Assembly (NCBI GenBank): GCA_021817785.1
Contig: JAKAFY010000001.1
Coordinates: forward strand, 26,446-90,445
DNA from: a bacterium
GTDB taxonomy: Bacteria; Patescibacteriota; Microgenomatia; UBA10105; UBA927
DNA: 64,000 nt
Reading direction: 5' to 3'
This document shows positions 24,736 through 62,014 of this stretch, in pieces. Position 1 is the first letter of the stretch. Each line of letters starts with the position of its first letter. The position numbers were made by a program, and so were the translations under genes. Below the pieces are notes generated by a model. That model had not been told where the DNA came from and did no database searches. It worked only from the letters and a program-made list of their open reading frames with translations.

Positions 24736-25329
24736 TTATCCGCTGTCTGAGCCGTCCAGCATCTGGCGGCTGTAGGTGAGTTCCAGCAATTTCTCCAGTA
24801 AATAAAACCGTGTGTACGATTGTTTTGCTGCATCCGATCCCATATGCCCTTCATTCTCGCGCAGTATCAGCGTTCCACCAAGGCGTTTCCATAAATACAG
24901 CCCCTGCTTTTCATCGCACCTCCACGGATCCGCACTTGAATTGATGATGATAATATCCCGCGCGTTTTGACCCATACGCTTCCAGTTATAGCGCTTTTTG
25001 AGCATCGGCTCAGTCGATTCCTTTTTGAGCCACCTGGAGTTGCCGAAAGCTGCGACAAAAATCGCTTTGTATACCGGAGACCTCAATTGTTCTAATACGC
25101 TGAGAAGCAACGCACCCCCGAGGGAGTGGCCGATAAGGATAGTTGATTCGGAAAATTTTCCGTGTTCGACCACATAGGGCAGCCAATTTGTAAGATCCGG
25201 TTTTTCCGGCACGGGCAACTGCGGCACCCATACACTATATCCGCGACCTTCCAGAAACCGCTGTATCGACGGATACCAAAACGATTTCGGCGTACTGTAC
25301 CCTCCGTGGAGAATAATGGCGTTTTTCAT
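24736..25329 (-). CDS. RBBP9/YdeN-family alpha/beta serine hydrolase
   Basis: MKNAIILHGGYSTPKSFWYPSIQRFLEGRGYSVWVPQLP...LIGHSLGGALLL (GHSxG nucleophile elbow)...DPW. Paralog of 40043..40585. Confidence 0.75.
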   Translation of the reverse strand: MKNAIILHGGYSTPKSFWYPSIQRFLEGRGYSVWVPQLPVPEKPDLTNWLPYVVEHGKFSESTILIGHSLGGALLLSVLEQLRSPVYKAIFVAAFGNSRWLKKESTEPMLKKRYNWKRMGQNARDIIIINSSADPWRCDEKQGLYLWKRLGGTLILRENEGHMGSDAAKQSYTRFYLLEKLLELTYSRQMLDGSDSG

Positions 25330-25907
25330 ACTACGATGGCCCCCTGCCGCACAATGGTATACGGCGTCACGCTACAATCAACGACGGTTGATGCTTGTTT
25401 GACGCTGCATGCTCCGGGGACGACGTAATCTACCAACTTCATAAGCTCGGGATCCAACTGTTCGAACGTATACGGTGTCGGGCTTCCGTGAAAGTTTGCC
25501 GACGGCCCCAGTACCGGTACACCCACCCCGCGGATAAGGGCCAGTGCCGTTTCGTGGTTTGGCTGGCGGACGCCGATCGTGTCTCCGCCGCCGCGGATAG
25601 GGGAGTGGATCAACTCTTTTTTACACCGGGCGATGATCGTGAGCGCTCCCGGCCAATATGTTTTCATAAAACGTCGCACAATATCATCAGGGGAGTCGAG
25701 GTAGGAGAGTGCCATGGGTTCCGAGTCAACCAGTACCGGCGTGGCCTGCGTCAGCGGCCGCTTGCGCAGTGCAAACAACCGATCGACGGATGCGGGGCGG
25801 TCTATCCGGCACCCTATGCCAAATGCGGTATCGGTGGGATATATGACAATTCCTCCGGACATAAGCACCCGGATTGCTTCGTTGATCTGTTCAGACGTAG
25901 CCTTCAT
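25326..25907 (-). CDS. tsaC: L-threonylcarbamoyladenylate synthase (YrdC/Sua5 domain)
   Basis: AIRVLMSGGIVIYPTDTAFGIGCRIDRPASVDRLFALRKRP...ALTIIARC...SANFHGSPTP, the YrdC-domain signature. Confidence 0.85.
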   Translation of the reverse strand: MKATSEQINEAIRVLMSGGIVIYPTDTAFGIGCRIDRPASVDRLFALRKRPLTQATPVLVDSEPMALSYLDSPDDIVRRFMKTYWPGALTIIARCKKELIHSPIRGGGDTIGVRQPNHETALALIRGVGVPVLGPSANFHGSPTPYTFEQLDPELMKLVDYVVPGACSVKQASTVVDCSVTPYTIVRQGAIVV

Positions 25908-25930
25908 ATAGTATGTATCTTATACGACGT

Positions 25931-26085
25931 TCGTTACTTTGTTACTTCGTTACTTTGTTACTTCGTTACTTTGTTACTTCGTTACTTTGTTACTTCGTTA
26001 CTTTGTTACTTCGTTACTTTGTTACTTCGTTACTTTGTTACTTCGTTACTTTGTTACTTTGTCAATTTGTCACTTTGTTAATTCC
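25931..26085. repeat. tandem repeat array, 16-bp unit TCGTTACTTTGTTACT (itself two 8-mers TYGTTACT), about 8 perfect 16-bp copies plus degenerate 8-mers
   Basis: Read directly: ...tcgttactttgttacttcgttactttgttact... x8, then ttgtcaatttgtcactttgttaatt. Lies between the tsaE stop (26070) and tsaC start (25907). The degenerate end overlaps the last tsaE codons. The period is not a multiple of 3. Confidence 0.85.
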
Positions 26086-26528
26086 ATCTCTATCGTATGA
26101 CTCCCATCGGGCAGCGCCGCAAATCGTATATCCACCCGTGTATCCGGCAACAGCATGCCTAACCGCTCCGGCCATTCGATCACGACATATGCGGCGGGAT
26201 CCGTACGCATTTCGTCAAACCCCAACGCTTCGATGTCTGATGTGCCCTGCACGCGGTACAAATCCATGTGATAGAGCATGCGCGTCGTTTTCGGAATACT
26301 ATAACGTCGCACAATAATAAAGGTAGGCGAGGGCAGGCGACTGGTTATGCCAAGTCCCCTGGCCAGGCCCTGGGTAAACGTCGTTTTTCCGCTGCCTAGT
26401 TCTCCCCACAGGCACAGGACCCGGGGCGCCTCTCCCCTCTTGTCTGCTAAAAGGGTATGTCCAAGCGTCTCGCCCAGCTTCTGAGTAGCTTCGGCGCTTT
26501 TTGTAATTGTGTGCAAAGGTAATACCAT
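26070..26528 (-). CDS. tsaE: tRNA threonylcarbamoyladenosine biosynthesis ATPase TsaE
   Basis: TITKSAEATQKLGETLGHTLLADKRGEAPRVLCLWGELGSGKTTFTQGLARGLG. Walker A in the YjeE/TsaE context. Confidence 0.85.
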   Translation of the reverse strand: MVLPLHTITKSAEATQKLGETLGHTLLADKRGEAPRVLCLWGELGSGKTTFTQGLARGLGITSRLPSPTFIIVRRYSIPKTTRMLYHMDLYRVQGTSDIEALGFDEMRTDPAAYVVIEWPERLGMLLPDTRVDIRFAALPDGSHTIEMELTK

Positions 26529-26931: not shown

Positions 26932-27756
26932 TCATTCTCGTTTTATAATTTTTTTCCATACGTCTGTTTTCTGCCACGCGGTCGCAAACGAAAGCAATGC
27001 GAGTCCGCTGCCGATACACAAAAACGAAAAGACAAACGGCGATTGGCTGACCCGCGCGCCGCTTATGGTCGCCTCGTCGCTTGTCTCCGGTATCGCATCC
27101 GAGGTTTCCACACTCTCCGATGCGATTGCACTTCCCAGTATATCAGGATTTATTTGTTCCGTGGGTGACGGCGCGCCCGTCGATGACGGTGTCGCCGTGG
27201 GAGTGACGGATGGAGATGGTGTATGGGTAGCGGTGGGATTGGGCGTATTAGTAGGAGCAGTTGTAGTAGTCGGAACTGGCGTAGGCGTATGGGTAGGGCC
27301 GGTGATGGCAATAGTTACTTCCCCGCTCCACACCGAGGCGGAACTGCAGCTAGGCGTATACCGGCCTACCTTAAACAGATATTCTCCCGGGCCGTTGTAG
27401 TACGGGCTTGCCGTATCCGGCTTCACCTTCAATACCCCGCTCCAGGTCCCCTCTTTCGAAAGATCGGTTTGCAGGATTTTATAGTACTGGGTGCAGCTTC
27501 CTCCCGGCGCATTGGTCCACGTGCCGTCGTTACTCTGCGTATAGCCAAAGTAGCTTGATCCGCTGGGATAAAACGCCCCGCGCAGATAGGAGTCGGTGCT
27601 GCAGCTGGGGCAGGAAAACTGTACGGTGATTTCCGATTCCGCGTTTTCATCCAAAGTCGTAGGAACCGCGGAAAGCGAGAGCGTCTGCGTGCTCGCAGCA
27701 AGGACAAGCGGAACAAATAATTTCCCAATGACGCTGAACCATGGCAGATGGTTCAT
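26932..27756 (-). CDS. secreted surface protein with Pro/Thr-rich linker and C-terminal hydrophobic anchor
   Basis: Signal-peptide-like N-terminus (MNHLPWFSVIGKLFVPLVLAAS). Cys-containing beta domain. The linker ITGPTHTPTPVPTTTTAPTNTPNPTATHTPSPSVTPTATPSSTGAPSPT is low complexity. C-terminal FVFSFLCIGSGLALLSFATAW helix plus basic tail. Confidence 0.6.
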   Translation of the reverse strand: MNHLPWFSVIGKLFVPLVLAASTQTLSLSAVPTTLDENAESEITVQFSCPSCSTDSYLRGAFYPSGSSYFGYTQSNDGTWTNAPGGSCTQYYKILQTDLSKEGTWSGVLKVKPDTASPYYNGPGEYLFKVGRYTPSCSSASVWSGEVTIAITGPTHTPTPVPTTTTAPTNTPNPTATHTPSPSVTPTATPSSTGAPSPTEQINPDILGSAIASESVETSDAIPETSDEATISGARVSQSPFVFSFLCIGSGLALLSFATAWQKTDVWKKIIKRE

Positions 27757-27866
27757 TTGATATACCAGTGTACGGGATGTTTATGGAAAATTCTGTACGA
27801 TGGATTGCAGTACAGGTGTTGGGACGAAATCGGAACAACAATTAACGCTATCTTAAATTTTTGATT

Positions 27867-28508
27867 TTAGCCCTTAATTTGTTTCCTGAATTCATTCTTA
27901 ATATCAAGTATTAGCTTTTCATACTTATCTTTTACGGCTTTGTTTGTTTTAATAGTTGATTCTGCATCCTTTTTTGTGAATCCCAATTGCTGTGAGCTTT
28001 GAGGCGATGTGCTTCTGATATCAATAAGTTTCAGTTTTCCAAATCTAAATTGCTCAAATTGACTAAATAATTCCATTAATTTTTTGTAATGCGATTGTTC
28101 TATAAGTAGTGTATTCTCTTCAACAGCATTTTTCGTTAATCTTATCTGCTCAGAAAATGATGGGATTTTTTCAGGAGATGGGTTGTTCCAAAGCGCATCT
28201 GCCAGCTGTTTGGTTACCATTAAAATTTTCCAAAGATTATTATAGAGTTCAAATTGTTTTTCTGAGTATCTTAAAAAGAGTACTTTTGTTTTTTCCAATT
28301 CAGTTTTTGTTTTTTCTAGTTCGGTTTGATACTTATTTTTCAAATCTTCTAATCCTCGTTCATGTGAATTTTTATACTTTTCAAGTATCCCCTGAGAGAT
28401 AATTTCACCTAACCATTTTGCAATCGCAATAATTATTGCTCCAGCCCCAAAAGTGGAGATAAAAAATGCTGCCACGATATTAAATGCGCTTTGGAATGAT
28501 ACATTCAT
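27867..28508 (-). CDS. hypothetical protein, N-terminal TM plus coiled-coil (low-GC island gene A)
   Basis: ORF 27867..28541. Start at MNVSFQSAFNIVAAFFISTFGAGAIIIAIAKWLG (28508) avoids overlap with gene B. Lys/Glu-rich coiled-coil (ELEKTKTELEKTK). AT-rich codon usage unlike flanking genes. Confidence 0.5.
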   Translation of the reverse strand: MNVSFQSAFNIVAAFFISTFGAGAIIIAIAKWLGEIISQGILEKYKNSHERGLEDLKNKYQTELEKTKTELEKTKVLFLRYSEKQFELYNNLWKILMVTKQLADALWNNPSPEKIPSFSEQIRLTKNAVEENTLLIEQSHYKKLMELFSQFEQFRFGKLKLIDIRSTSPQSSQQLGFTKKDAESTIKTNKAVKDKYEKLILDIKNEFRKQIKG

Positions 28509-28510
28509 AA

Positions 28511-28867
28511 TTAATAATTTAGATTGTTTGCCCTTAACCAATCGTGTAGTTGATCGGGATCAACATTGTTAAACCCTAAATATCTGTTCTTAGTTAAATA
28601 TCCAATATGCTGCCCATTTAAATAAATTGCTGGGGGAGTACTTGTATAAGGGTTAAACGGACTTAATGAGGAATACTGACTTCCGTAGGTTCCATATTTG
28701 TTAAAAATTGATGTTGCGGAGTATTGATTCCCATAATATCCATAAGGGTTGGAAATTGATTCAGCATCAAAATTATTAAGCGAAAGTTTTCCAAGATATT
28801 GACCGTCATTAGCAAGTAAAAACGATTCATGGTTTTGAGCTTTTGCAAGGATTTGCTGAAATTCCAT
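28511..28867 (-). CDS. hypothetical protein with NPYG/Tyr-Gly-rich repeats (island gene B)
   Basis: 118 aa with SNPYGYYGNQYSATSIFNKYGTYGSQYSSLSPFNPYTSTPP repeat-like region. No family recognized. Confidence 0.45.
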   Translation of the reverse strand: MEFQQILAKAQNHESFLLANDGQYLGKLSLNNFDAESISNPYGYYGNQYSATSIFNKYGTYGSQYSSLSPFNPYTSTPPAIYLNGQHIGYLTKNRYLGFNNVDPDQLHDWLRANNLNY

Positions 28868-28885
28868 ATAATAATTTTTAAAACG

Positions 28886-29578
28886 CTAAGCCATCTCTTT
28901 ATCGTATTTTTGGGTTAATAATTCAGCTTCTATCCAGTGAGTTGTTAATTTTATCAATTCTTTTAGATTACTTATGTCTTTATCTGTCCAAGTTCGATAG
29001 TAATGAACCTCATCGTTTCCTAGCCACGCCGCTCTCTCAGTACATTTTTTAATATTTGTATCATCTATCAGAGCTAAGACAGGTGCGAGTGTCTTATATT
29101 TTTTAATTTCCTCTGCTCGTTCAGGGTATTTTACAGATAGGTAATCTTTAACTAAGTACTCCAGACTCTTCCTATAGCCTCCACCACAAACCTCATCTAA
29201 ACCCATTGATTCTGCTATATAAGCTTGATTATATATTCTTCGAAATTTAGGCGACGTCATGTTAATTTCATTAGGAAATTCAATTGGTTTAAAATACTCA
29301 GGGACTCCAACCTGGGCCAATGTAAAATAATCGCCATGACGTCCCACCTTGGAATAATATGCAATAAAATATCTCTTACATTCGTTGCGAGAACACTTAA
29401 AAACAACTTCAACTATTTCGTCATAGTCCCATAACGCACCCAAATTTTGAGAATTCTTAAATATTGGACTTGTTGGTTTTCCACACCTCCCGCAGATATC
29501 AGGAAAGTCGTTTATCGTAATTGAACCACGACTTCCTTCATTAATCTCTAACGATATCAAAGATGTATCTCTAGCCAT
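28886..29578 (-). CDS. zinc-ribbon plus DUF4145-like domain protein (island gene C)
   Basis: 230 aa. N-terminal Cys4 (CGRCGKPTSP...CSRNECKRY). C-terminal ERAAWLGNDEVHYYRTW resembles the DUF4145 R-x-GN-x-x-H core. The assignment is tentative. Confidence 0.5.
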   Translation of the reverse strand: MARDTSLISLEINEGSRGSITINDFPDICGRCGKPTSPIFKNSQNLGALWDYDEIVEVVFKCSRNECKRYFIAYYSKVGRHGDYFTLAQVGVPEYFKPIEFPNEINMTSPKFRRIYNQAYIAESMGLDEVCGGGYRKSLEYLVKDYLSVKYPERAEEIKKYKTLAPVLALIDDTNIKKCTERAAWLGNDEVHYYRTWTDKDISNLKELIKLTTHWIEAELLTQKYDKEMA

Positions 29579-29777
29579 ATAATTAGCAACATCGTACCAC
29601 TACTTAACCTAAAGTCAATTGTTTTTAAGTAATGGTTTCGCGCCGCCGCGTTAATGCGAGTCAAGGGAGCGTTCGCGCACTCGTTCAATCCTTCACATCC
29701 GTGAAAGACATCAACCCGCCACGCTGATTAGTTTTACACCTCGTCCCATAGGCTACCTCGTCCAAGTTTATTAGTTC

Positions 29778-29798
29778 GCACCCCCGGTGTGTGGGCAG
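29778..29798. repeat. GC-rich palindromic element copy 1 (variant CGCACCCCCGGTGTGTGGGCA)
   Basis: Read in the divergent C/D intergenic region. Shares the GCAC..CC..GG..GGTGTG..GGG core with copies 2-4 but has the central CCGGGGG inverted to CCCCCGG. Confidence 0.5.
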
Positions 29799-29869
29799 AT
29801 AACTCCCATAGAGGTCATATTGTTAGCAGATGAAAAGATGTAATTTAGAGCGTATAATTGCCCTTTACT

Positions 29870-30502
29870 ATGAATTACGAACGTATTTTGCCTCATACAA
29901 CCGAACGGGAGATTGTTCGTGAAGCTGCTTCCAAGAGTCCATTACATTTGGTTTTCGCGGGCGCATCAAGTACAGGAAAAACAACAATGATGGAGATATT
30001 GAGTACGCAGATTGGAGTACCAACCATACCGGAAACGGCACGCTCAATCATAAAAGAACAGGGTTGGAAACGTGAAGACTTAGACAATGCCGCCACACTG
30101 TATGATCTTCAGCAGCGGATTGTAACCAAACAGTACGAACAAGAAATTGTGCTCGCACACGTACCACATTGTTCTGATCGAAGTATCTTTGATCCCCTAG
30201 TGTACGCAGAAATGTATCTCGGGCTGGAAGCGATGGAAAAACTCAAACAGATGCCGGAATATTCCGGGATAGATACCATATATAAAAATGCGCTATTTAT
30301 CGTTATCGAACCAAACGAACGCACATTTCGTAATGATGGGGTTCGGATTTTACCGGATATTCAATTCGCACGGGAATTTAATAACCGCATTAAACGGATT
30401 TTAGAGGACTATAAATTGCCCTACATAGAAATACACTCGGCCTCTATACACGAGCGCGAGGAGGAAATCTATAGAAAGCTGGCACAAAAACTTCTTTTGT
30501 GA
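29870..30502 (+). CDS. P-loop NTPase (AAA_28/NadR-like ATPase or kinase) (island gene D)
   Basis: ORF 29858..30502 starts on TTG inside a TATAAT box; ATG at 29870 (MNYERIL) is more likely. Walker A LVFAGASSTGKTTMMEIL and a Walker B-like LFIVIEPNE. Confidence 0.6.
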   Translation: MNYERILPHTTEREIVREAASKSPLHLVFAGASSTGKTTMMEILSTQIGVPTIPETARSIIKEQGWKREDLDNAATLYDLQQRIVTKQYEQEIVLAHVPHCSDRSIFDPLVYAEMYLGLEAMEKLKQMPEYSGIDTIYKNALFIVIEPNERTFRNDGVRILPDIQFAREFNNRIKRILEDYKLPYIEIHSASIHEREEEIYRKLAQKLLL

Positions 30503-30510
30503 GCTTGTTT

Positions 30511-30532
30511 CGTACACCGGGGGTGTGGGTGA
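30511..30532. repeat. GC-rich palindromic element copy 2 (CGTACACCGGGGGTGTGGGTGA)
   Basis: Nine nt after the stop of island gene D. Stem CACACC / GGTGTG around GGG. Confidence 0.7.
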
Positions 30533-30547
30533 ATAGTTTCTTCATTT

Positions 30548-30964
30548 TTGACTTATAATAATTTCCGGTGTACTATTTGTCCGATGGCACGCGTATATCA
30601 CACCGGCGGAAAAGAAGATACTATAATCGGATTTACAGCTGTCGAGTTTAACGCTAATAATCACACCCTCCGAATAACAACTGACTCACCCAAATCCCTC
30701 GCCAACTGGATACGGAGAGACCTCCGTAGAGGTGATATATCTCTTTGGCTCGCATCCGAAGACAAAGCTGATTTAGCGTACACATCAGATATATTAAAAC
30801 GGCGGGTTATTACTCGTGATCGAGGTTCATTGGCATTTCGCCTACGGGAATCAGGGACGGCAAAAGTCACAATATACCCTTCACGAATGAGCCGGAAACA
30901 AATTAAACCCATTGAGTTACCTGTATTCGCAGAGTTATTTTTTAGACCGTCGCACGACGCCTGA
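30548..30964 (+). CDS. hypothetical protein (island gene E)
   Basis: 138 aa ORF with no recognizable motifs. Alternative start at MARVYHTGG (30584). Confidence 0.4.
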   Translation: MTYNNFRCTICPMARVYHTGGKEDTIIGFTAVEFNANNHTLRITTDSPKSLANWIRRDLRRGDISLWLASEDKADLAYTSDILKRRVITRDRGSLAFRLRESGTAKVTIYPSRMSRKQIKPIELPVFAELFFRPSHDA

Positions 30965-31016
30965 AGTTAGATACGTACAATCTTTATTACGCGTTCTCGA
31001 AAATGAACATCCACTA

Positions 31017-31424
31017 TTAGGCGGTGGTGCGTACCATTTTTTGGGGGAAATTTATCCCAAGAAAATAATCAGTAGGTTTATGTGACGCTAGGAGTGCTTT
31101 GATTTGATCCACAACCGGCAGTTTTAATGACTTAATATCAAATGGCGTTCTCATGTCTAAGTGGATGCTGGCAAACGACATCGGGTGAAGCAGATCCGCA
31201 GCATCAGCGGTTAATGTTTCTAACAGCGGGCGTTCTTGAGACTTGGCCATCAATGTAACGTTAACGTATTTATGTACTTGATACGGCTTTACTACTTTCC
31301 AGCCTTTTGAGTGCGCTACGCGATCTTCGGTGGTTCTAAACAGTAAATCTCCCTTCTGGTTCATTTCAAGAGAGGCTTCTTTAATCATGGAAGAAATTAT
31401 ACCTATTTTTGAAGAAAATGTCAA
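31017..31424 (-). CDS. hypothetical protein (island gene F)
   Basis: 135 aa ORF. Possible internal start MIKEASLEMNQ. No recognizable motifs. Confidence 0.4.
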   Translation of the reverse strand: MTFSSKIGIISSMIKEASLEMNQKGDLLFRTTEDRVAHSKGWKVVKPYQVHKYVNVTLMAKSQERPLLETLTADAADLLHPMSFASIHLDMRTPFDIKSLKLPVVDQIKALLASHKPTDYFLGINFPQKMVRTTA

Positions 31425-31442
31425 CTATAGGCTATATATTTT

Positions 31443-31497
31443 ACGCACACCGGGGGTGTGGGTGAGTAGGCATTACATCGACAGCCGGTCGACTTCG
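31443..31497. repeat. direct repeat copy 3: palindromic element ACGCACACCGGGGGTGTGGGTGA plus a duplicated gene 3' end (..ACATCGACAGCCGGTCGACTTCG)
   Basis: About 52-bp repeat nearly identical to 31813..31864. Its minus-strand reading gives ..HEVDRLSM-stop, a remnant of the C-terminal codons (..FEVDRLSI-stop) of the gene at 31840..33042. Confidence 0.75.
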
Positions 31498-31557
31498 TGA
31501 AAATTTCATTCTTACAAAAGCCCAGCGTGTGAGGTTGATCATTTCGAACAGGAACTA

Positions 31558-31770
31558 TTAATGACCTCCAAACGGCCAATGTAATCCCTTTTTTCTAGTT
31601 TTCTGTTCATTCTTCTTCCAATCTTCGCCCGTTTCACCAAATGGATGACATGGCATAGGACACACAACACTTCCACCAGGAATTTTATCCAGATTTGGTT
31701 TTTTGACCTTTAATTTAGTTCCGTCACCCCAATCTACTTCTTTTACTTTAGTTTCGTTTTTACCACCCAT
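31558..31770 (-). CDS. hypothetical small protein (island gene G)
   Basis: ORF 31558..31818. Likely start MGGKNETKVKEVDWG (31770). Lys-rich with a CPMPCHPFG motif. Flanked by the ~52-bp direct repeats. Confidence 0.35.
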   Translation of the reverse strand: MGGKNETKVKEVDWGDGTKLKVKKPNLDKIPGGSVVCPMPCHPFGETGEDWKKNEQKTRKKGLHWPFGGH

Positions 31771-31812
31771 AAGAAGAGAGATTATAACAGAATTAGTTAT
31801 TAAACAAAAATA

Positions 31813-31864
31813 ACGCACACCGGGGGCATGGGTGAAAAATTATATTGACAGCCGGTCGACTTCG
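31813..31864. repeat. direct repeat copy 4: palindromic element ACGCACACCGGGGGCATGGGTGA plus the authentic 3' end of the C39-like peptidase gene
   Basis: Overlaps the stop codon (31840) of the PcsB-like gene. Same ~52-bp unit as copy 3. Confidence 0.75.
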
Positions 31865-33042
31865 AAGACGCTTCCCAGGGAATAGCTATCCGTAAACACT
31901 TTGTCGTGTCCCCCGTCCTGATAGGGATCGTTCATGATGTACTGGCCGTTGGAGTAGGATTTTATGACGACAAAGTGCGTATCAAATGGTCCATAATTAA
32001 TTCCAACAATAACTGGACCATCTTTAACCAAATCAGGACTTAATTTATATCCGACACTAAATCTATTAATAGTTACTCCCTTTACGCTTATAAAGCCTTT
32101 AAGTAACATTGCTGTTCCAACGGAAAAATTACTTGGATCAGATACGGCGATATCTAGTGGCTTAATATCGGTGCGTCCTAAATGACTTGCTACCATGGCA
32201 ACAGATGTAACAAGACATCCGACACGAGCAATACTACATGACCCATTACAATCGTTTCTCCCGTTTATTAATACATTCCCCCACTGGCTGTCCCGCTGGT
32301 TGTAATAGCATCCCCAACTATCGCAGTGCGTTTGTCCCGACAGCAATCCGCCGCCCTGGCTGGTCGCAAAGCTTGCAAATCCTGCCAGCTGCGCCCGCGC
32401 GGCAGCCAGTAAGCTCTGGTATTTGCTCTCGTCATTTTGGGTTTGGGACAGAAGCGACTGTTTCTCGCTTTTTTGCTGGGCCAGCAAATTGGTGCGCTGC
32501 ACGAGCTGTTTATTGAGCGCTTCCTGCTCTATGCGCTTTTTCTCCCGCATGTCTTTCCGGTCGTTATAGTCGTTTTGGGTAAGCTGCAGCTGTTTATACA
32601 GCTGGGTGTCTTCTTCCTGCAGTTGCATCAGGTACTTTGCCCTGGTAATCATCTCGGTAAAGTCGGAACTAAACAGCAGCCACCCGAACTGCGACGCGGT
32701 CGACCGTTTGTACGACTGCGGTATGCGGTACAGCACCATCTGCAGCCGTTGGGTTTTCAGATCCTCCAGCTTGCCGATTTCGCCGTCCAGCTGGTTTATC
32801 TCTCCGTCCAGCGCCGTAATTTTCCGTTTGGTATCGTCTATCTGCAGACTCGTCAGCGTAATCTGGGAATTGAGAAGCGTGATTTGTTTGGACAGGGTGT
32901 CTTTCTGTGTCTGCAGTCCCGCAATGGTTTGCTCCAGTGTTGCGATCGTCGTCTGCAAATCCGTCTGGGAATCCGCAAAAACCCTCACGGACACAAGCGT
33001 GAGTATAAAGACGATGACGCCGATCTGAAGAATTTTTTTCAT
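31840..33042 (-). CDS. secreted coiled-coil protein with C-terminal C39-like (papain-fold) cysteine peptidase domain; PcsB/EnvC-like FtsEX-associated hydrolase candidate
   Basis: 400 aa with signal peptide (MKKILQIGVIVFILTLVSVRVFA), a long Q/L-rich coiled-coil (aa 25-230), and a C-terminal domain. That domain carries HCDSWGCYYNQ...CSIARVGCLVTSVAMVASHLG...GINYGPFDTHFVVIKSY...NDPY, matching the Peptidase_C39_2 Cys/His arrangement. Sits immediately downstream of ftsX. Confidence 0.7.
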   Translation of the reverse strand: MKKILQIGVIVFILTLVSVRVFADSQTDLQTTIATLEQTIAGLQTQKDTLSKQITLLNSQITLTSLQIDDTKRKITALDGEINQLDGEIGKLEDLKTQRLQMVLYRIPQSYKRSTASQFGWLLFSSDFTEMITRAKYLMQLQEEDTQLYKQLQLTQNDYNDRKDMREKKRIEQEALNKQLVQRTNLLAQQKSEKQSLLSQTQNDESKYQSLLAAARAQLAGFASFATSQGGGLLSGQTHCDSWGCYYNQRDSQWGNVLINGRNDCNGSCSIARVGCLVTSVAMVASHLGRTDIKPLDIAVSDPSNFSVGTAMLLKGFISVKGVTINRFSVGYKLSPDLVKDGPVIVGINYGPFDTHFVVIKSYSNGQYIMNDPYQDGGHDKVFTDSYSLGSVFEVDRLSI

Positions 33043-33064
33043 ACGGGCGCGTACGTAGATATGG

Positions 33065-33958
33065 TTACTTTAAGTAACGGATAAGTGCGGTCCAGCTCCC
33101 CACGGCGCCGAGAATAAATCCCAATACCACGGTGCTCACAAAAAATCCGAATGCGGACAGCAAGAACACGGGGCTTACGAGACTGGCAAACAGCAGGTGA
33201 AGCATGGGAATCATGCCCAAAAATCCGTACAACAACGGCCGCATCCACGCGATAACGCCGATCAAAATGAGAGACGCGATAGCCGCGCCCACGGCGCCAT
33301 AGGTGCCGCCCTCTACGATAAACGGCGCGCGTATGGTCCACGGCGACGCACCGACGAGTGTCAGAATTTCTATCTCATCGCGTTTGAGCGCTACCTTCAT
33401 CGCGATTACCGTCCCGATGATAAGCAGCGAATCTATGGCCAGAAGCAGTGCCAATGTGCCGCCCACCAGGCGGATAGCATTGGTCCAGTTGAGTAGCGAC
33501 TCTACCACATCGCGCTGGTAGACCACTTCATCCACTCCCTCGCTTCCCTGGATAAGCGGCGTCAACTGCGAAAGATACTGCGGGTCGGTCGCAGACACTT
33601 CGAGGGAGGCGGGCAATATGTCCGCCGTCACCATCTCGAGAAGCAGCGGATCGTTTTTGTTTTGCTGCTGGTAGATGGACAGTGCCTCGTCTTTGGAAAT
33701 AAATTTCGTGGAGGCGACTTTGCCGGTGGCTTCCAGTTTCTTTTTCAGCGCATCCGCTTCCACCTGCCCTGCTTTCGGCGTAAAAAAGACGGTAATCTGG
33801 GGCTTTCCTTCAAAAAATCCCAGGATGGAGACCGAGGCCATGCTTGCCAGGAAAAATACGCCGCCGACCAGAAACGTCAGGAACATAGTAAGCGTCGCTG
33901 CCAAGGCCTGGTTGGGAGATCTGCGGATATGGGTGCGTACTTCTCTAATGAGCGGCAT
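33065..33958 (-). CDS. ftsX: cell division ABC transporter permease FtsX
   Basis: 297 aa with N-terminal TM, a large extracytoplasmic loop and 3 C-terminal TM helices. Position after ftsE. Confidence 0.85.
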   Translation of the reverse strand: MPLIREVRTHIRRSPNQALAATLTMFLTFLVGGVFFLASMASVSILGFFEGKPQITVFFTPKAGQVEADALKKKLEATGKVASTKFISKDEALSIYQQQNKNDPLLLEMVTADILPASLEVSATDPQYLSQLTPLIQGSEGVDEVVYQRDVVESLLNWTNAIRLVGGTLALLLAIDSLLIIGTVIAMKVALKRDEIEILTLVGASPWTIRAPFIVEGGTYGAVGAAIASLILIGVIAWMRPLLYGFLGMIPMLHLLFASLVSPVFLLSAFGFFVSTVVLGFILGAVGSWTALIRYLK

Positions 33959-34676
33959 CGTGTTTCCCTCCTTTGGGTTCTTTTTTCTCGTGTTTGGTCA
34001 GATGATAATGTCCTTTTTCCTCGTCGCGGACGACATGTCCGTGTTCTATGGTGATCGTACGGCGTTTCAGCCGGTTGACGACGTCCGCATTATGGCTGGC
34101 GACGATGACGGTCGTGCCCAGGCGGTTTATTTCTTCCAGTATGTCGATGATGCCCCAGGACGTTTCCGGGTCCAGGTTGCCCGTCGGTTCGTCGGCAAGC
34201 AGCATTTTCGGACCGCCCACGATTGCGCGTGCGATACTCACCCGTTGCATCTCCCCGGCAGAAAGCTGTATGGGGAACACGTCTTTTTTATCCAAAAGGC
34301 CGACCAGTTCCAGGACGTTTTTCACGCCGTCCGGTATGTCTTTGACGGGTTTGCCCAGAATTTCCAGCACCATCGCCACATTTTCGTAGACGGTGCGGTC
34401 CATAAGCAGTTTGAAATCCTGAAATACGATACCCACTTTGCGCCGCAGCAGATGGATGTTTTTGGGCGTTAACTTTTTCAGGTCGTATTCATCGATCACG
34501 ATATTACCCGAGGTAGGCAAAAGGTCGCGGATGAGCAGACGCAGGATAGTCGTTTTGCCGGAGCCGGATGGGCCGATAAGGAACACAAATTCACCATCCG
34601 GTATTTCTACGGACAGGTCAACGATTCCCGGAATTTTCCCCGGATAAAATTTGGAGACGTCAGTAAAGCGAATCAT
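33945..34676 (-). CDS. ftsE: cell division ATP-binding protein FtsE
   Basis: GPSGSGKTT Walker A, LSAGEMQRVSIARA signature and [11 protein letters not shown] Walker B. MIRFTDVSKFYPG N-terminus typical of FtsE. Confidence 0.9.
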   Translation of the reverse strand: MIRFTDVSKFYPGKIPGIVDLSVEIPDGEFVFLIGPSGSGKTTILRLLIRDLLPTSGNIVIDEYDLKKLTPKNIHLLRRKVGIVFQDFKLLMDRTVYENVAMVLEILGKPVKDIPDGVKNVLELVGLLDKKDVFPIQLSAGEMQRVSIARAIVGGPKMLLADEPTGNLDPETSWGIIDILEEINRLGTTVIVASHNADVVNRLKRRTITIEHGHVVRDEEKGHYHLTKHEKKEPKGGKHDAAH

Positions 34677-34700
34677 CCCAGATACCAGATACCAATACCG

Positions 34701-35228
34701 TTACTGTACTTCCAGCCGCTCGACATCCATAAGCCATGGAGCCTTGAGGGCCTGTAACGTAGCGCCGCACACTTTTACTTTCAGGCCGACGTATTGATCG
34801 AGGTCGATGATGGAAGAGATAAGGTACGCCGTCTGCGACGGGCCGCCCGGACGGGTGAGATGGTGTGTCCCCTCTCCGTCTATGCCGCCTTTGTCGAGCG
34901 TGCCGACCGGACAGTTGGTAAACTTGGATGCATCCTGCACTCCGGCTACCTTTGCCGGATTGCCCGCCGTGCCGGTGGTGACGACCATGGCAGCGCCGGA
35001 CGTGCTTTTATGCGACAGGATATAGCCGGTCCCCAACCCGAAAAGTATAAGGACGACATATACTGCCAAAATGACCATGGAATTCTGTTTCATCTGCTGT
35101 ACGGGATGTTTGGCGTCGCGCGCATCGATCGGACGGACAAGCTCGCTGGGTTGTGTATTCATAGATAGTTCGGCGGGGTCCGTTGTGGGACGCACCGGTT
35201 TCGGTTTCATATCTTTTCTCATTATCAC
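34701..35228 (-). CDS. hypothetical membrane-anchored protein
   Basis: 175 aa with basic N-terminus and one TM (MVILAVYVVLILFGLGTGYIL), then a soluble domain. Located between prfB and ftsE. Confidence 0.5.
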   Translation of the reverse strand: MIMRKDMKPKPVRPTTDPAELSMNTQPSELVRPIDARDAKHPVQQMKQNSMVILAVYVVLILFGLGTGYILSHKSTSGAAMVVTTGTAGNPAKVAGVQDASKFTNCPVGTLDKGGIDGEGTHHLTRPGGPSQTAYLISSIIDLDQYVGLKVKVCGATLQALKAPWLMDVERLEVQ

Positions 35229-35231
35229 GGC

Positions 35232-36242
35232 TTACGAATATTTTTTCAAGTATGCGAGTATAAAGTCTTCGAGATTCCCGTCCAGCACGCTTTCGGTGTC
35301 GGATGTTTCGTATTCCGTACGCAGGTCTTTGACCATGTGGTACGGGTGCAGCACGTAGGAGCGGATCTGGTTACCCCAGCCCGGCGTTTTGTATACGCCG
35401 CGCAAATCTTTCTGCTGCGCGATACGCTTCTGATTTTCCATTTCCCATAGTTTGGCCCGCAGCATTTTCAGCGCGAACTCGCGGTTCTGCCCCTGGTACC
35501 GCTGCGCCTGGCTGGCGACGATGATGCCGGTAGGCTTATGCTTCAAGCGCACGGCGGTAGAAACCTTGTTGACGTTTTGGCCGCCTTTGCCGCCGCTCCG
35601 ATAAAATTCCCATTCCAGGTCTTCTTCGCGTATGTCCGATCCTGCGTCTTCTTCGATGATCGGCAGCACTTCCACCATGGCAAACGACGTCTGACGCAGT
35701 TTGTCCGCATTAAACGGAGACTGGCGCACGAGGCGGTGCACCCCGGCTTCTGCTTTGAGGAATCCGAATGCGTACCGGCCCGTCACTTCAAACGTAATGC
35801 TTTTTATGCCTGCTTCGTCTCCCGGCGTATAGTCCATTTCTTCCGCTTTCCAGCCTTTGATTTCTATATAGCGCGTGTACATGCGATAGAGCATCTGCGT
35901 CCAGTCCATGGCTTCCGTCCCACCCTGGCCGGCGTGGAGTGCGATGATGGCGTTTCCTTTGTCATACGGCCCCGAAAGATAGAGTGCAAATTCCAGCCGG
36001 GTGATTTCTTTGGCAAGTGCCGCTTCATCGCCAAGCTCGACCATGAGCTCAAACTCTTCCCCTTCGGCAAGTTCCTTTTGCAGGGAAGAAAGTTCCTGCA
36101 TCTTTTTGGCGGCGCGTTCGGGCTCTTTCCAAAAATCCTCATGCATGGTTTCGGCTTCCAGTTCGCGGATGTCGTGGCGCATGCCGTCCAGGTTCAGTTT
36201 CGCAAGCAATTCTGCTGCACGTGCTTTCAGTGCTTCATCCAT
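35232..36242 (-). CDS. prfB: peptide chain release factor 2
   Basis: SPF tripeptide (RQSPFNAD) and GGQ ([11 protein letters not shown]). Uninterrupted ORF, with no programmed +1 frameshift site (no CTTTGAC) upstream. Confidence 0.9.
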
Positions 36243-40042: not shown

Positions 40043-40585
40043 TTATTCTATCAACTTCAGTAAAAGAGGAAATTCTTTATATGGCTGATGCATGGCGTTA
40101 GAACCCATATGCCCTTCGCCGTGACGGATGATGAGCGTTCCGCCAAATGTGTCAAACAACTTTCTTCCCTGTGTATCGTCACACCCCCATGGGTCGTTGT
40201 CGGAATTTATGAAGATCAAATCTTCGCAATGTGACGTAATTTTTTCCGCATCATATGCCTCTTTTAGGATAGGCTGCTGGTCCGATTTGAGCGGTGTCAT
40301 AAATCCCGCTATGAATATGGCCCGTTTTATCCTGACATGTATGGATTCCAACACGGATAATATGATCGCCGCGCCACTGGAATGACCAACGATTACCGTT
40401 TCGTCCGTAAACACTCCGTGTTGCAAAATAAAGGGAAGCTGAATCTTCAAATCCGGCGTATCCGCTCCGGGCAGTTGCGGCGTCCACACGTCCCACTGTT
40501 TTGTCCGCAACGTATTTGTAATCCAGGGATACCACAATTGATCAGGAGTAGCACTTTGCCCGTGGAGGATGATCGCGTTCTTCAT
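40043..40585 (-). CDS. RBBP9/YdeN-family alpha/beta serine hydrolase (paralog)
   Basis: MKNAIILHGQSATPDQLWYPWITNTLRTKQWDVWTPQLP...VGHSSGAAIIL...DPWGCDD. Same architecture as 24736..25329. Confidence 0.75.
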   Translation of the reverse strand: MKNAIILHGQSATPDQLWYPWITNTLRTKQWDVWTPQLPGADTPDLKIQLPFILQHGVFTDETVIVGHSSGAAIILSVLESIHVRIKRAIFIAGFMTPLKSDQQPILKEAYDAEKITSHCEDLIFINSDNDPWGCDDTQGRKLFDTFGGTLIIRHGEGHMGSNAMHQPYKEFPLLLKLIE

Positions 40586-54283: not shown

Positions 54284-55608
54284 CGGCGTATTTCTTTTTT
54301 GCCAACCAGTGGCTGCAAAACCTCCGGAATACGTATGGACCCATCCGCCTGCTGATAATTTTCCAGTATGGCGATGAGAATCCGCGGGGATGCGATCGCC
54401 GTATTATTGAGCGTATGGACGTATTTTGTCGACCCGTCTTTTGCTTTATACCGGATTTTCAGCCGACGTGACTGAAAGTCGCCCATAAATGAATTTGACA
54501 TGGTTTCTCCGTAATTTCCATATCCTGAGCCTGCCGAAGGACGCCCGGGCATCCACGTTTCCACGTCATACTTTTTTACCTGCGGCTCCCCCATATCTCC
54601 GGTGCACATCAAAAGTACCCGGTATGGGAGTCCCAGATCCTGCAATATTTCCTCTGAATTCGCCAACAACTCTTCATGGAGAGTAAGGGAAGTACTCGTT
54701 TCCGCTGGCGCCACAATTACTTGTTCAATTTTGTTAAATTGGTGCACTCTGTAGACCCCTTTGGTATCTTTGCCGTAACTGCCCGCCTCCCTGCGGTAAC
54801 AGGACGAAAACGCGACAAATTTTTTCGGTAAATCTTTTTCAAGAAGCATCTCGTCTGCAAAATATGAGGTCACCGGCACTTCTGCCGTCCCGGCAAGATA
54901 CATATCATCTTTTTCGAGATGATACACTTCATCCCGCCCCCATGGCAGCTGTGCATTCCCAAACAACGTAAACTCTTTGACGATGCTTGGTGCGATCAAC
55001 GGAGTATATCCTTTGGCCACCAGTTTCTGAAACGCATAAAACATCACGGCAAATTCAAGCATGGCTGCTTCATTTTTCAGAAAATAGGCGCGGAATCCGC
55101 CGACTTTCGCACCCCGATCAAAATCGATAAGGTCCAATGACCGTGCAAGCTCTATATGATCTTTTGGAACGAAATCAAACTCAGGAATCTTTCCAACTTT
55201 TTTTACCTCGACGTTATCATGCTCATCTTTTCCGATAGGCACCGACGCGTCCGGCACATTGGGGACGGTAAGCATAAGCAGATTAAACTGCTCTTCCGTC
55301 GCCCGCGTTTCGTCTTCCAGCGCCTTGAGCTCCCCCTCCGGATGACTGAATTGCCGTACCGCTTCATCGACAGCCTTTTGTTTCTTTTCCTTATCCGCAC
55401 GATCCTCCGGAGATAGTTGTTGTATCGCTTGCTTTATGGCGTCGTTTACTTTGTTCTTCTCCGACTTCATGGCATCCCGCTTCTCGATAAGCTCCCGCCG
55501 CTTCTCATCGAGCCGCAGCAGTGCATCCCAATCTACCTCGCGATTTTTGTTTTTCGCAGCGGTTTTGCAAAGTTCCAGATTTTCCCGAATAAATTTTATA
55601 TCCAGCAT
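54280..55608 (-). CDS. serS: seryl-tRNA synthetase
   Basis: Start MLDIKFIRENLE. N-terminal coiled-coil arm and class II motifs (FRREAGSYGKDTKGVYRVHQF, GSGYGNYGE). Confidence 0.9.
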   Translation of the reverse strand: MLDIKFIRENLELCKTAAKNKNREVDWDALLRLDEKRRELIEKRDAMKSEKNKVNDAIKQAIQQLSPEDRADKEKKQKAVDEAVRQFSHPEGELKALEDETRATEEQFNLLMLTVPNVPDASVPIGKDEHDNVEVKKVGKIPEFDFVPKDHIELARSLDLIDFDRGAKVGGFRAYFLKNEAAMLEFAVMFYAFQKLVAKGYTPLIAPSIVKEFTLFGNAQLPWGRDEVYHLEKDDMYLAGTAEVPVTSYFADEMLLEKDLPKKFVAFSSCYRREAGSYGKDTKGVYRVHQFNKIEQVIVAPAETSTSLTLHEELLANSEEILQDLGLPYRVLLMCTGDMGEPQVKKYDVETWMPGRPSAGSGYGNYGETMSNSFMGDFQSRRLKIRYKAKDGSTKYVHTLNNTAIASPRILIAILENYQQADGSIRIPEVLQPLVGKKEIRR

Positions 55609-55768
55609 ACCGAGTAGTGAAATTTCGACCATTGCGTTTTACGCTTTGGGAAATTCCCTCTTCCTTTCTATCGCAATCGCATTCAATATATTTCCGGGTA
55701 ATCAATTTCTTATGCAATGACACCAAAGCGTGTCGAAATTCTACTACCCGGATAGTTGTAGAATACGG

Positions 55769-56416: not shown

Positions 56417-56660
56417 AAAAAAACACCTCCTTTTCTTTTTGAAAAGACGAGGTGTTCTCGTGGTGCCACTTTTCTTTGGTATATCGTTGCCGATATACGC
56501 TTCGTCACTTCTCCGCCAGTTGGCGACAAAGCGACTATTCTGTAACGGGAACTCCCGGATTTTCTTCGATACTCCTGTTGTAGTACTTTCGAAAATCGGC
56601 TCTACCGAGGGAATGTTCGGTATATAACGCCTGTATGTACTTGTTAACGTTCATATATTA
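56417..56660 (-). promoter_or_regulatory. structured ~240-nt 5' leader ending in a terminator/anti-SD hairpin directly abutting the start codon (riboswitch- or attenuator-like)
   Basis: The minus-strand RNA ends ...ACACCUCGUCUUUUCAAAAAGAAAAGGAGGUGUUUUUUUAUG. About 13 bp of stem (ACACCUC/GAGGUGU plus CUUUUC/GAAAAG) sequesters GGAGG. A U7 tract follows, then AUG. There is no room for a separate promoter between hairpin and start. Confidence 0.45.
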
Positions 56661-57922: not shown

Positions 57923-57980
57923 AAAGCTCAAATATCAAAATCCAAATGACAAACCAAATCTAAAATCCAAATCGTCAGAC

Positions 57981-58349: not shown

Positions 58350-58372
58350 TTGAGCGTTGACCTTTGAGCGTA

Positions 58373-58975: not shown

Positions 58976-58979
58976 GGAT

Positions 58980-60914: not shown

Positions 60915-60961
60915 ATATGTATTATATACATCCACCTTCGCCAAGGCTACGGTGGACACAG

Positions 60962-60992: not shown

Positions 60993-61005
60993 ATATCAGC
61001 TGATC

Positions 61006-62006: not shown

Positions 62007-62014
62007 CATACAAT

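Follow-up and report, generated by a model that had tools for sequence, protein, structure and literature searches.

The 64-kb window (by which we mean the whole stretch of DNA that was analysed) contains the conserved block prfB-ftsE-ftsX-peptidase, in which synteny is conserved and whose last member encodes a cell-wall peptidase with full-length homologues across the Microgenomates and weak NCBIfam matches to the EnvC and PcsB N-terminal families. Directly behind this gene lies a lineage-specific island of low GC content, bounded by the peptidase stop codon on one side and by the conserved ATCGTACAG promoter region of a gene for a 274-aa protein (26932-27756) on the other, and 5312 bp separate the peptidase stop from TsaE in the window vs ~850-1270 bp in most relatives. 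The features with which we are concerned are the following:

31840-33042, minus strand: peptidase gene, 400 aa, PcsB/CwlO-like coiled coil plus Peptidase_C39_2 domain (Pfam PF13529, E 1e-6)
31985-32270, minus strand: segment of the peptidase gene with a foreign codon composition (285 bp, ~codons 258-352)
31840-31864, minus strand: coding part of repeat copy 1, with the final 7 codons and the stop of the live gene (CGAAGTCGACCGGCTGTCAATATAA)
31811-31839, minus strand: hairpin P1, non-coding part of copy 1, a GC-rich stem of 6-9 bp followed by a T-run
31558-31770, minus strand: gene G, a lysine-rich ORFan of 70 aa, called as a gene in public contigs
31498-31557, minus strand: non-coding tail of 60 nt that follows the stop of G and leads up to the remnant
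31473-31497, minus strand: coding part of repeat copy 2, a gene end that is displaced and dead (CGAAGTCGACCGGCTGTCGATGTAA, ..EVDRLSM*)
31441-31469, minus strand: hairpin P2, non-coding part of copy 2, with a perfect CACACC/GGTGTG stem
31017-31424, minus strand: module F, a 123-aa ORF (31017-31388) and its promoter (31396-31424)
30508-30536, no strand assigned: hairpin P3, 6 nt past the stop of the plus-strand AAA_28 gene
29870-30502, plus strand: AAA_28 / NadR-type P-loop kinase-like gene, 210 aa (Pfam PF13521, E 8e-23)
29774-29802, no strand assigned: hairpin P4, a variant copy (69% identity)
27867-29578, minus strand: most AT-rich part of the island (GC 0.30-0.35), with ORFs of 230, 118 and 213 aa
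27795-31839, no strand assigned: the whole lineage-specific low-GC island, 4.0 kb, from composition profiles

The final 25 nt of the peptidase gene and the 22-29-nt hairpin P that follows them are present twice, at 31811-31864 and 31441-31497. The initial annotation had described a unit of ~52 bp occurring twice some 370 bp apart with a gene between the copies, and we found this to be accurate for both halves of the repeat and for gene G, which lies between them. An alignment of the two full copies spans 52-55 nt and needs one indel, of 3 nt, which falls in the stop-to-hairpin spacer, and this alignment is well beyond chance: the 18-mer GACAGCCGGTCGACTTCG has exactly two occurrences (31480-31497 and 31847-31864) against an expectation of ~0.08 matches, even with 3 mismatches allowed. 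Only six families of direct repeats with a 14-nt seed exist in the whole window, the gene-end/hairpin repeats among these. The same arrangement, base-for-base identical or within ~0.14%, was present in the eight further public contigs that we checked, which represent several samples and three sources (ENA, NCBI, Logan). We rejected an assembly artefact or chance as the origin of the repeat, as it greatly exceeds what shuffling would lead one to expect and independent assemblies show it in identical form.

Copy 1 is the real end of the 400-aa ORF (...FEVDRLSI*), and copy 2, which reads HEVDRLSM*, is a dead remnant of 8 codons, just as had been proposed. Stop codons stand in the same frame immediately upstream of copy 2 and the remnant is, therefore, not within a longer ORF, a possibility that we considered and rejected. 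The right edge of the tail, TTTTCA/CGAAGTC (the slash marks the junction), is where similarity to the gene begins abruptly, and no more was found when it was sought upstream of that point. We conclude that the repeat is a genuine scar of foreign DNA inserted directly behind the peptidase gene. Between the copies the spacer has been replaced (TTTT vs TGCCTAC) and the adjoining 18 nt and 14 nt are identical, that is, the divergence is clumped in the selectively free spacer, with the coding part and the hairpin stem conserved. This is the pattern expected for two alleles of one module, the window case alone being too short to decide between diverged alleles and fresh duplicates.

The hairpin motif CACACCGGGGGTGTGGGTGA occurs at 31446-31465 (no mismatches), 31816-31835 (two) and 30513-30532 (one), none being expected by chance, and a fourth, loop-flipped copy is found at 29774-29802. 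P1 scored as terminator-like on the minus strand and likely ends transcription of the peptidase gene. It carries two substitutions (CACACC to CATGCC) for which pairing is kept solely through U.G and G.U in RNA of the minus strand, a pairing that was read directly from the sequence, the fold being computed. The single substitution in P3 keeps pairing in the plus-strand RNA only, and its fold reaches -12.5 kcal/mol on the plus strand vs -5.4 on the minus strand. The flanks of P4 are in direct register with P3 and its loop is flipped, with CCC and not GGG on the plus strand. At the boundaries of modules the hairpins would probably serve to end transcripts or as insulators. All four copies fall within a 2-kb stretch of the island (29774-31839), and the hairpin was found nowhere else in the window, including after the other ~60 genes, nor in 1.5 Mb of related loci; likewise, the islands of other lineages have no P-like boundary repeats. 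IMG/VR gave 0 matches and the JGI metagenomes gave 5, all on unrelated contigs of 59-73% GC with no other similarity, which we consider chance matches, and the idea of a widespread repeat was rejected accordingly. Also rejected was the idea, suggested by one related locus (L110), that P is the decayed 3' end of a tRNA-Glu gene, as the similarity was not significant after multiple tests.

The cargo of the island consists of modules in both orientations that have promoters of their own. Gene G is preceded by a TATAAT box (31781-31786), its only match among 5.8 billion protein clusters is itself, family searches with it gave no matches, and its AlphaFold model is poor (pLDDT 57). Module F has a promoter that matches the consensus TTGACA-17-TATAAT at 12/12 positions and a single, distant homologue (P0123), encoded in another genome in which it adjoins a tRNA-Glu gene, beginning 5 nt past the tRNA 3' end; the DNA homology of that locus with the window starts sharply at GCCTATAGTTGA. 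Neither the F promoter nor its start motif was found in IMG/VR. The AAA_28 gene, which also has PHROG and NCBIfam matches, is cargo on the strand opposite to that of the peptidase gene, and the 230-aa ORF matches phrog_1305, annotated as "DNA binding protein"; the region that encodes the latter (27867-29578) is the oldest or the most AT-rich part of the island. O126 (30584-30964), for which there is no homologue and which is uncalled in public contigs, was treated as a doubtful ORF. We detected no similarity of the island to any other locus, phage or plasmid, and a prophage or plasmid origin was rejected for lack of a DNA match in the phage and plasmid collections; viral relatives amount to a weak one for p230 and none for AAA_28. 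Rfam searches of the island and of the GC-rich spacer at 29585-29775 revealed no RNA family, fold z-scores were unremarkable, and PADLOC was negative for defence systems save for one marginal match, so that this candidate was also set aside.

We found no evidence of machinery that could have moved these modules. A Pfam search of the ~65 ORFs of the window, island included, found no integrase, transposase or recombinase, and thus no cognate enzyme of the kind for which the initial annotation had called; a Y1/HUH transposase or RAYT-type gene was not found in the window either, and 27700-32000 has no attC-like R''(RYYYAAC)...R'(GTTRRRY) pair on either strand. All 13-14 contigs with an identical peptidase or F protein carry G, and an intermediate allele (gene-P-F without G) was not found among the contigs compared. 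The proposal of an element that targets the 3' end of the gene consequently stands in part: the gene end is repeated and its terminus is intact, but there is neither a recombinase in the window nor a shared att core. We found no evidence for a self-contained integrating element with a cognate integrase: G is an ORFan seen nowhere else, the palindrome is private to the island, and 14/14 contigs with F also carry G. The suggestion that the further palindrome copies mark serial insertions is plausible.

The site behind the peptidase stop is a hypervariable insertion hotspot. Among the best 80 of 351 related loci the usual order is peptidase, ~80 bp, the 274-aa gene and TsaE. Empty sites, for which it had been advised to look in relatives, are present in the immediate clade (L010, L011 and L112) and also in L013, L014 and L017; in four close relatives with an empty site, ~55-85 bp separate the peptidase gene from the conserved 274-aa gene. 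Elsewhere, in the window and at least six other cases, the site is occupied by small, unrelated cargo that is different in each case (the window, L008, L092, L095/96, L101, L113 and L114), and no cargo is common to the hotspots of different lineages. The flanks are fixed, the cargo differs or is missing across lineages, its composition is atypical and mobility genes are lacking. The other six occupied hotspots have no repeats. One locus, L003, was considered as proof of the transfer of the block between species and discarded, since it could equally be an assembly chimera with a switch at a conserved 35-mer.

A duplicated gene end was also found in L008, L009 and L012, where 88 nt recur with a period of 140 nt and 83% identity; these three were the only ones among 95 loci in which diverged remnants of the gene end could be detected at the protein level. 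The remnant of L008 (11248-11334) is followed by a gene of 181 aa. All 15/15 differences between its two copies are synonymous and both copies encode an identical peptide of 28 aa, which argues that one copy came from a diverged functional orthologue and not from duplication in situ followed by drift; when the copies were aligned to empty sites, neither was singled out as the older. The repeats of L008 enclose only 52 nt, in which a hairpin is present and a gene is absent, and the insert would be a piece of a homologous locus rather than an element. The junction is 86 nt before the stop in L008 vs 25 nt in the window, so there is no att core common to both, although in each case the longest perfectly identical block opens the repeat (18 nt in the window, 20 nt in L008). 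On this comparison of sequences we regard L008 as an independent second case with a different junction. Of the initial interpretation, it is supported that an intact gene terminus is kept and an old terminus displaced downstream.

The peptidase gene provides a further sign of exchange. In the 285-bp patch GC3 falls to ~0.2 vs 0.65-0.7 on both sides, a value as low as was reached in 0/20000 codon shuffles, and no comparable dip was found in the peptidase gene of relatives. The affinities of the patch are also unlike those of the rest of the gene, its nearest relatives including lineages from outside the clade. The low GC3 of the patch together with its differing affinities shows that the anchor gene is itself recombinant, a mosaic, which is a sign, independent of the repeat, of homologous recombination with diverged DNA.

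How, then, did a second gene end come to lie downstream of G? The explanation that we favour, and to which we would give an even chance of being correct, is that recombination left the repeat as a scar in a hypervariable hotspot, flanked by core genes, of Microgenomates (CPR) chromosomes, the process being homologous recombination with an occasional illegitimate or short-homology join. The intergenic interval that has the essential ftsEX-linked peptidase gene on one side and the conserved 274-aa gene on the other would accept foreign DNA, and cargo would normally be exchanged without a trace by homologous recombination in both of these conserved flanking genes. Occasionally there would be homology on one side only: the incoming piece would be the same locus of a diverged relative, with its own gene end, terminator hairpin and cargo, and the other side would be closed by a join inside the resident gene end in one of two ways: 1. 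by homology-facilitated illegitimate recombination or 2. by a single crossover in the identical block of 18-20 nt. The gene would then read into one copy of the terminus and the other copy would be displaced downstream as a dead remnant. For the window this could mean that the new gene end came with P1-G-tail, or with everything from the remnant onward, and that the old and new gene ends now flank G. We infer the order of these events, as well as an enzymology of general recombination, probably after DNA uptake, the natural competence of the host being assumed from CPR bacteria in general. Among the latter, natural transformation is reported for the Saccharibacteria.

The recombination scar reading is supported by the hotspot, the recurrence in L008, the mosaic anchor gene, the clumping of divergence in the spacer, the absence of mobility genes in the window and precedents in the literature. 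In both cases the displaced and live ends look like diverged alleles (all differences synonymous in L008, the spacer replaced in the window), and in both a conserved gene body is followed by a displaced 3' fragment and then by other genes (in the window, 31473-31497 and then F). Against it is that homology-facilitated illegitimate recombination usually deletes recipient DNA and does not duplicate it, and that a repeat opening with its longest identical block looks like a crossover core. Also, the reading does not predict four P hairpins at module boundaries only, and to account for the P copies it needs either several events or a common donor.

Could a site-specific system have built the array instead? 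The initial annotation leaned this way, and its view would translate into a recombinase, acting in trans, that integrated a small non-autonomous module (P1-promoter-G-tail, 370 bp) as it had earlier modules, the attachment site being hairpin P together with the final ~25 nt of the peptidase gene, with integration regenerating the terminus in the manner of tRNA- and 3'-end-targeting islands and of decayed tycheposon-type arrays. We think this possible, if rather unlikely. The direct repeats do exactly bound a discrete promoter-plus-ORF module, with the 18-nt identical block at the left edge and diverged arms behind it as in attL/attR hybrids, but in L008 the junction is elsewhere and encloses 52 nt only, and no repeats of any kind occur at the other six occupied hotspots. 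P stands at four module boundaries, each time shortly upstream of promoter-like sequence, but it is absent from IMG/VR and all related loci (its JGI matches being unrelated, high-GC and due to chance), the modules lie in both orientations, and the centre of P is 3 nt, which is too short for the typical overlap region of a tyrosine recombinase. A tRNA 3' end is a classical integration site and the sharp 5' boundary of F at GCCTATAGTTGA does recur 5 nt past one in the second genome, but P does not significantly resemble the 3' end of tRNA-Glu. Finally, the all-synonymous divergence in L008 would also fit an element-borne gene end under selection, and the array resembles the tycheposons of Prochlorococcus, in which stacked partial att sites are pushed outward by new arrivals (10.1101/2020.12.28.424599), but there is no recombinase in the island or the window, no homologue of G anywhere among 5.8 billion protein clusters and no presence/absence polymorphism among 14 contigs. 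A bolder version, which we consider quite unlikely, is that the P hairpins are the recombination sites of an undescribed, IntI/attC-independent gene-capture system of CPR bacteria, for which F beside tRNA-Glu would mark a second docking site. Promoter-carrying micro-cassettes of 0.4-1 kb may in that case be stacked at the 3' end of the ftsEX-linked hydrolase gene, and a recombinase encoded elsewhere may recognise the gene end plus hairpin and regenerate the terminus with each insertion.

A local accident of replication or repair, in which a fork stall or break at the GC-rich hairpin after the stop led to template switching, the copying of a foreign or ectopic segment (G) and then the re-copying of gene end and hairpin, is in our opinion very unlikely. 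Hairpins are known fragile or slippage sites and the duplicated unit ends exactly at one; a single event would suffice and a homologous donor locus would be unneeded, and the flipped loop of P4 is typical of a hairpin-mediated micro-inversion. Copies made in situ begin identical, however, whereas here the spacer is replaced between identical stretches of 18 and 14 nt, the synonymous differences in L008 require two independently selected gene ends, and the different cargo at the same place in many lineages is left unexplained. Scarcely credible at all is an integron-like cassette array (CALIN) with P as the attC site. Small ORFan genes separated by a recurring imperfect palindrome beside a fixed chromosomal position do recall one, but attC sites are 57-141 nt long and P (22-29 nt) is far below that size, no RYYYAAC...GTTRRRY pair exists anywhere in the island, an IntI-type integrase is absent from the ORFs of the window, the modules have their own promoters (12/12 consensus positions for F) and both orientations, and the repeat contains coding sequence of the neighbouring gene. 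With three defining features contradicted, we rejected the integron/CALIN candidate.

Genomes of the CPR/Patescibacteria, a group of ultra-small bacteria, are tiny and few mobile elements can be recognised in them, and the acquisition of strain-specific genes is poorly documented. The locus is a concrete and comparably sampled example in which one intergenic spot is empty or filled with ORFans depending on the lineage, the ORFan cargo has strong promoters of its own, and the two lineages with a scar show that the exchange involved the 3' end of the neighbouring gene itself. If general recombination is the true explanation, then gene flux in CPR bacteria can run on uptake and flanking homology alone; if the site-specific rival is true, then there is a recombinase system still to be discovered. 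The interval from the peptidase gene to the 274-aa gene is also a ready marker of strain-level variation and might serve genetic tools for Microgenomates as a neutral site of insertion.

Several known systems resemble parts of this locus. The P hairpins share with REP/BIME elements that they are short, GC-rich, imperfect palindromes just past stop codons, in either orientation and probably terminators, but there are only four copies of P, in one 2-kb stretch of the island, and no RAYT-type gene; the many copies dispersed genome-wide and the RAYT transposase of REP/BIME systems were seen neither in the 64 kb nor in related loci. As in tRNA/tmRNA islands and tycheposons, the 3' part of an intact target gene flanks the insert as a direct repeat, newer arrivals would displace older ones and integrase-less remnants would accumulate. 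Unlike them, the 64-kb window lacks an integrase, the target is a protein-coding gene plus terminator, the junction varies between lineages in place of the same core recurring in independent insertions (it differs in L008, and six hotspots have no repeat), and the bounded unit is 370 bp, or 140 bp in L008.

Hotspots flanked by core genes have been proposed to turn over via flanking homologous recombination; examples are cDHS1 and cDHS2 in Pseudomonas aeruginosa, where, as here, highly variable cargo lies between fixed core genes (PMC10250203). Common to both are also an atypical base composition, the lack of integrase or transposase scars and a turnover proposed to proceed through the conserved flanks. 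The island described here differs in its size (0.3-4 kb vs a median of 26 kb), in its cargo, which is mostly ORFans with no defence systems recognised by PADLOC, and in that a recombination scar is visible.

C-terminal displacement is reportedly also a property of rhs loci, and it is with rhs/T6SS arrays that the present locus invites a further comparison. Here a housekeeping divisome peptidoglycan hydrolase takes the place of the polymorphic toxin, the peptide specified by the new end is unchanged where an array would acquire another toxin domain, and the remnants amount to just 8 and 28 codons. No immunity genes can be recognised in the cargo, and the host belongs to the CPR. In other respects the loci would be alike: a conserved 5' gene body is the homology anchor, the incoming DNA brings a new 3' end and one or more downstream genes, and the old 3' end is displaced downstream and kept as a fragment, successive events building arrays. 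[quoted passage not shown]

The initial annotation described a repeated peptidase gene end flanking G, a 70-aa ORFan gene, and this observation stands. An 18-mer, GACAGCCGGTCGACTTCG, occurs exactly twice, at 31480-31497 and 31847-31864, within two 52-55-nt copies that each comprise a gene end and hairpin P, a 22-29-nt palindrome. The surrounding features are:

minus strand, conserved block: prfB, a 175-aa gene, ftsE, ftsX and a 400-aa 'PcsB-like' gene (31840-33042)
31811-31864: copy 1, with the live terminus ...FEVDRLSI*
between the copies: G (31558-31770, 70 aa), with a TATAAT box ahead of it and a 60-nt tail behind
31441-31497: copy 2, with the displaced end HEVDRLSM*
beyond ~27795: a conserved 274-aa gene (26932-27756), then a VanZ-family gene, then tsaE

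The similarity between the copies, over 52-55 nt, is not due to chance, nor does the remnant belong to a longer intact ORF, because two in-frame stops lie directly upstream of HEVDRLSM*. Similarity sets in abruptly at CGAAGTC and ends past GGTGTGCGT. The copies differ by two substitutions, both in the last two codons, by a CA-to-TG change in one stem arm of P and by a replaced spacer (TTTT vs TGCCTAC). Eight more public contigs, built from several samples by several assemblers, have the same arrangement, identical or nearly so. Judged by what its closest homologs and loci are called, the window is chromosomal DNA from the Microgenomates/Gottesmanbacteria group of the Candidate Phyla Radiation (CPR). 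We conclude that both the CPR hotspot and the recombination scar within it, the repeat, are real, and that the scar is well documented.

The 400-aa protein combines a coiled coil at its N-terminus with a C-terminal Peptidase_C39_2 domain. Past its stop codon, GC falls from ~0.53 to 0.30-0.45 and remains low as far as ~27795, the extent of what we call the island. Further along, at 25898-26107, an 8-nt unit is repeated ~26 times head to tail, TTCGTTAC and TTTGTTAC taking turns, between a Sua5/YrdC-family gene (25326-25907) and tsaE (26070-26528); the array overlaps the ends of both.

Loci with peptidase relatives were compared in the best 80 of 351 genome loci and in ~25 metagenome contigs. In the great majority, a homolog of the 274-aa gene follows within ~30-250 bp of the peptidase stop, and in most tsaE is ~0.85-1.3 kb from that stop vs 5.3 kb in the window.

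Contents of the site in the immediate clade (70-80% protein identity)
L010, L011, L112: empty site of 55-85 bp, without hairpin P
L008: 181-aa gene
L092: 101-aa gene
L095/96: 78-aa gene
L101: 129-aa gene
L113: two small membrane proteins
L114: ~0.7 kb including a small ORF

We found no kinship among these cargos and the window's seven island ORFs, and direct reading of the sequences shows that every insertion has its right-hand edge at (A)TCGTACAG, the conserved region with the promoter of the 274-aa gene. Compared with 30515-36242, one contig (L003/L108, Logan SRR13240876) matches the window at 100% identity between 35200 and 30515 but at only ~80% across prfB, and its upstream gene order differs (FUR present). 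The change in identity coincides with 35 nt of sequence conserved between species, and P3, the third hairpin copy, is cut by the contig end. Either the assembly is chimeric here or the ftsEX-peptidase-island block has truly recombined between species.

One relative carries a gene-end duplication of its own, independent of that in the window. In a 1.2-Mb Gottesmanbacteria MAG (JAHFKK010000001.1; L008/L009/L012), the last 88 nt of the peptidase gene are duplicated at 11108-11335 of L008, with a 140-nt period and 83% identity. The copies bracket only 52 nt, holding a small hairpin, CAACCCGTCGGGTTG, and no gene, and the junction lies 86 nt ahead of the stop vs 25 nt in the window. Both copies encode PYQEGGHDKVFTDSYSLGSVFEVDRVSI*, and all 15 of their 15 differences are synonymous where about a quarter of random substitutions would be, which rules out a recent duplicate decaying neutrally. 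Each copy evolved as the working gene end of a different lineage, and the two were later brought together. Nucleotide- and protein-level searches of ~95 loci gave no further gene-end duplicates.

The window's peptidase gene is itself a mosaic. Its GC3 is 0.65-0.7 over codons 1-255, ~0.2 over codons ~258-352 (a 285-bp patch at 32270-31985) and 0.6-0.8 over the last 48 codons. A patch this low arose in 0 of 20000 codon shuffles, and FtsE, FtsX and the relatives' peptidase genes have no comparable dip. The nearest relatives of the patch include the out-clade L013, L014 and L015; the segments flanking it have their nearest relatives within the clade (L008, L010 and L092). The patch resembles a homeologous gene-conversion tract within the catalytic domain, and judging from composition and affinities its source was probably a lower-GC relative; if so, the 3' half of the gene has exchanged sequence with diverged DNA on at least one further occasion.

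Pfam searches covered the ORFs of the island and virtually every other ORF in the window, a 64-kb portion of the genome. They gave matches to glycosyltransferases, sugar-nucleotide enzymes, RuvABC, SecA, tRNA synthetases and the like, and none to a transposase, an HUH protein or a recombinase of the tyrosine or serine type. No Rfam family matched the island, which also has no attC-type R''/R' pair and no DNA similarity to any of 50,697 phage or 72,556 plasmid records. An integron reading was excluded on three defining features. Among the island proteins, one alone has an IMG/VR relative, a weak one (L111, 27% identical): a 230-aa protein (28886-29578) that matches phrog_1305 'DNA binding protein' (E 2e-38) and no Pfam family. 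G matched only itself among 5.8 billion protein clusters, and F, the 123-aa ORF of the next module, has a single distant homolog among 1.84 billion representatives. That homolog (L110 1-471, GCA_036706575.1) lies 5 nt beyond a tRNA-Glu(UUC) 3' end, and its DNA homology to window 31017-31440 begins sharply at GCCTATAGTTGA in the -35 region and spans the promoter and the first 8 codons of F (MIKEASLE). Its public gene call begins 14 codons too late.

Several other stretches deserve mention. From P3 to the F stop (30537-31016, ~480 bp) there is promoter-like sequence and a 126-aa plus-strand ORF (30584-30964) with no public gene call and no homolog, which may be a decayed or non-coding remnant. 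Between P4, the fourth hairpin, and the start of the 230-aa gene lies a non-coding 190 nt (29585-29775) of ~50% GC in the AT-rich island, with no Rfam match and ordinary folding energy (z = -1.5 and +1.1). A second lower-GC region (55000-64000, 0.41-0.47) contains tRNA-Glu(CTC) at 61933-62007 with a terminator hairpin behind it and, at 62709-63347, the gene for an Mrr-type restriction endonuclease; it may be another variable region beside a tRNA gene. Two Ser_hydrolase (PF06821) paralogs 15 kb apart (24736-25329 and 40043-40585) share a 46-nt stretch at 74% identity.

P, with the core CACACC-GGG-GGTGTG, occurs in three copies at ≤2 mismatches and a fourth variant, all within the island. It is absent from IMG/VR and from 1.5 Mb of related loci, and in JGI metagenomes appears only as chance matches on unrelated high-GC contigs. 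A T-run follows P1, whose terminator score fits an intrinsic terminator of the peptidase gene. Read from the sequence, the substitutions in P1 are compatible with stem pairing in minus-strand RNA alone (through U.G and G.U) and that in P3 with pairing in plus-strand RNA alone, in each case the strand of the gene ending just before (the peptidase gene and the 210-aa AAA_28 gene, respectively); fold energies agree. P2 comes after G, and P4 (29774-29802) after no gene. The flanks of P4 are in direct register with those of P3, but the inner stem and the 3-nt loop of P4 run the other way (CCC for GGG), which resembles a hairpin-mediated micro-inversion. Each P lies 6-30 nt upstream of the next module's promoter-like sequence, and a perfect TTGACA-17-TATAAT stands ahead of F. 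Terminator score, strand-matched pairing and placement ahead of promoter-like sequences lead us to read P as a putative terminator or insulator hairpin at module boundaries. This island-private family is the sole feature left unexplained, with a modest chance of being something new.

What kind of event left the scar? The diverged, orthologous incoming gene end of L008, the unconserved junction, the further recombination tract and the lack of any recombinase in the window point to general recombination with related genomes' versions of the same locus and an occasional duplicating join, an explanation to which we give about an even chance. The usual course would be a double crossover in the conserved flanks; being scar-free, such exchange would account for many different cargos without repeats. 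More rarely, one homologous crossover combined with an illegitimate or short-homology join would duplicate the gene end, and in the window the last arrival would be either G or everything from the remnant on. Accidental template switching at the hairpin fits the allele-like divergence poorly and seems improbable. The initial annotation favored a site-specific element that regenerates the gene terminus on insertion, which we consider unlikely but retain because the longest identical block opens each repeat, P marks the module boundaries, and the sharp 5' boundary of F recurs in another genome 5 nt past a tRNA-Glu gene.

On present evidence, then, the scar is mechanistically ordinary. A site-specific element would liken the locus to decayed tycheposon arrays (10.1101/2020.12.28.424599). 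The general-recombination reading is compatible with what is described for core-gene-flanked hotspots (PMC10250203), and the same mechanism has been proposed for orphan 3' fragments in rhs loci and T6SS effector-immunity arrays (PMC5361080).
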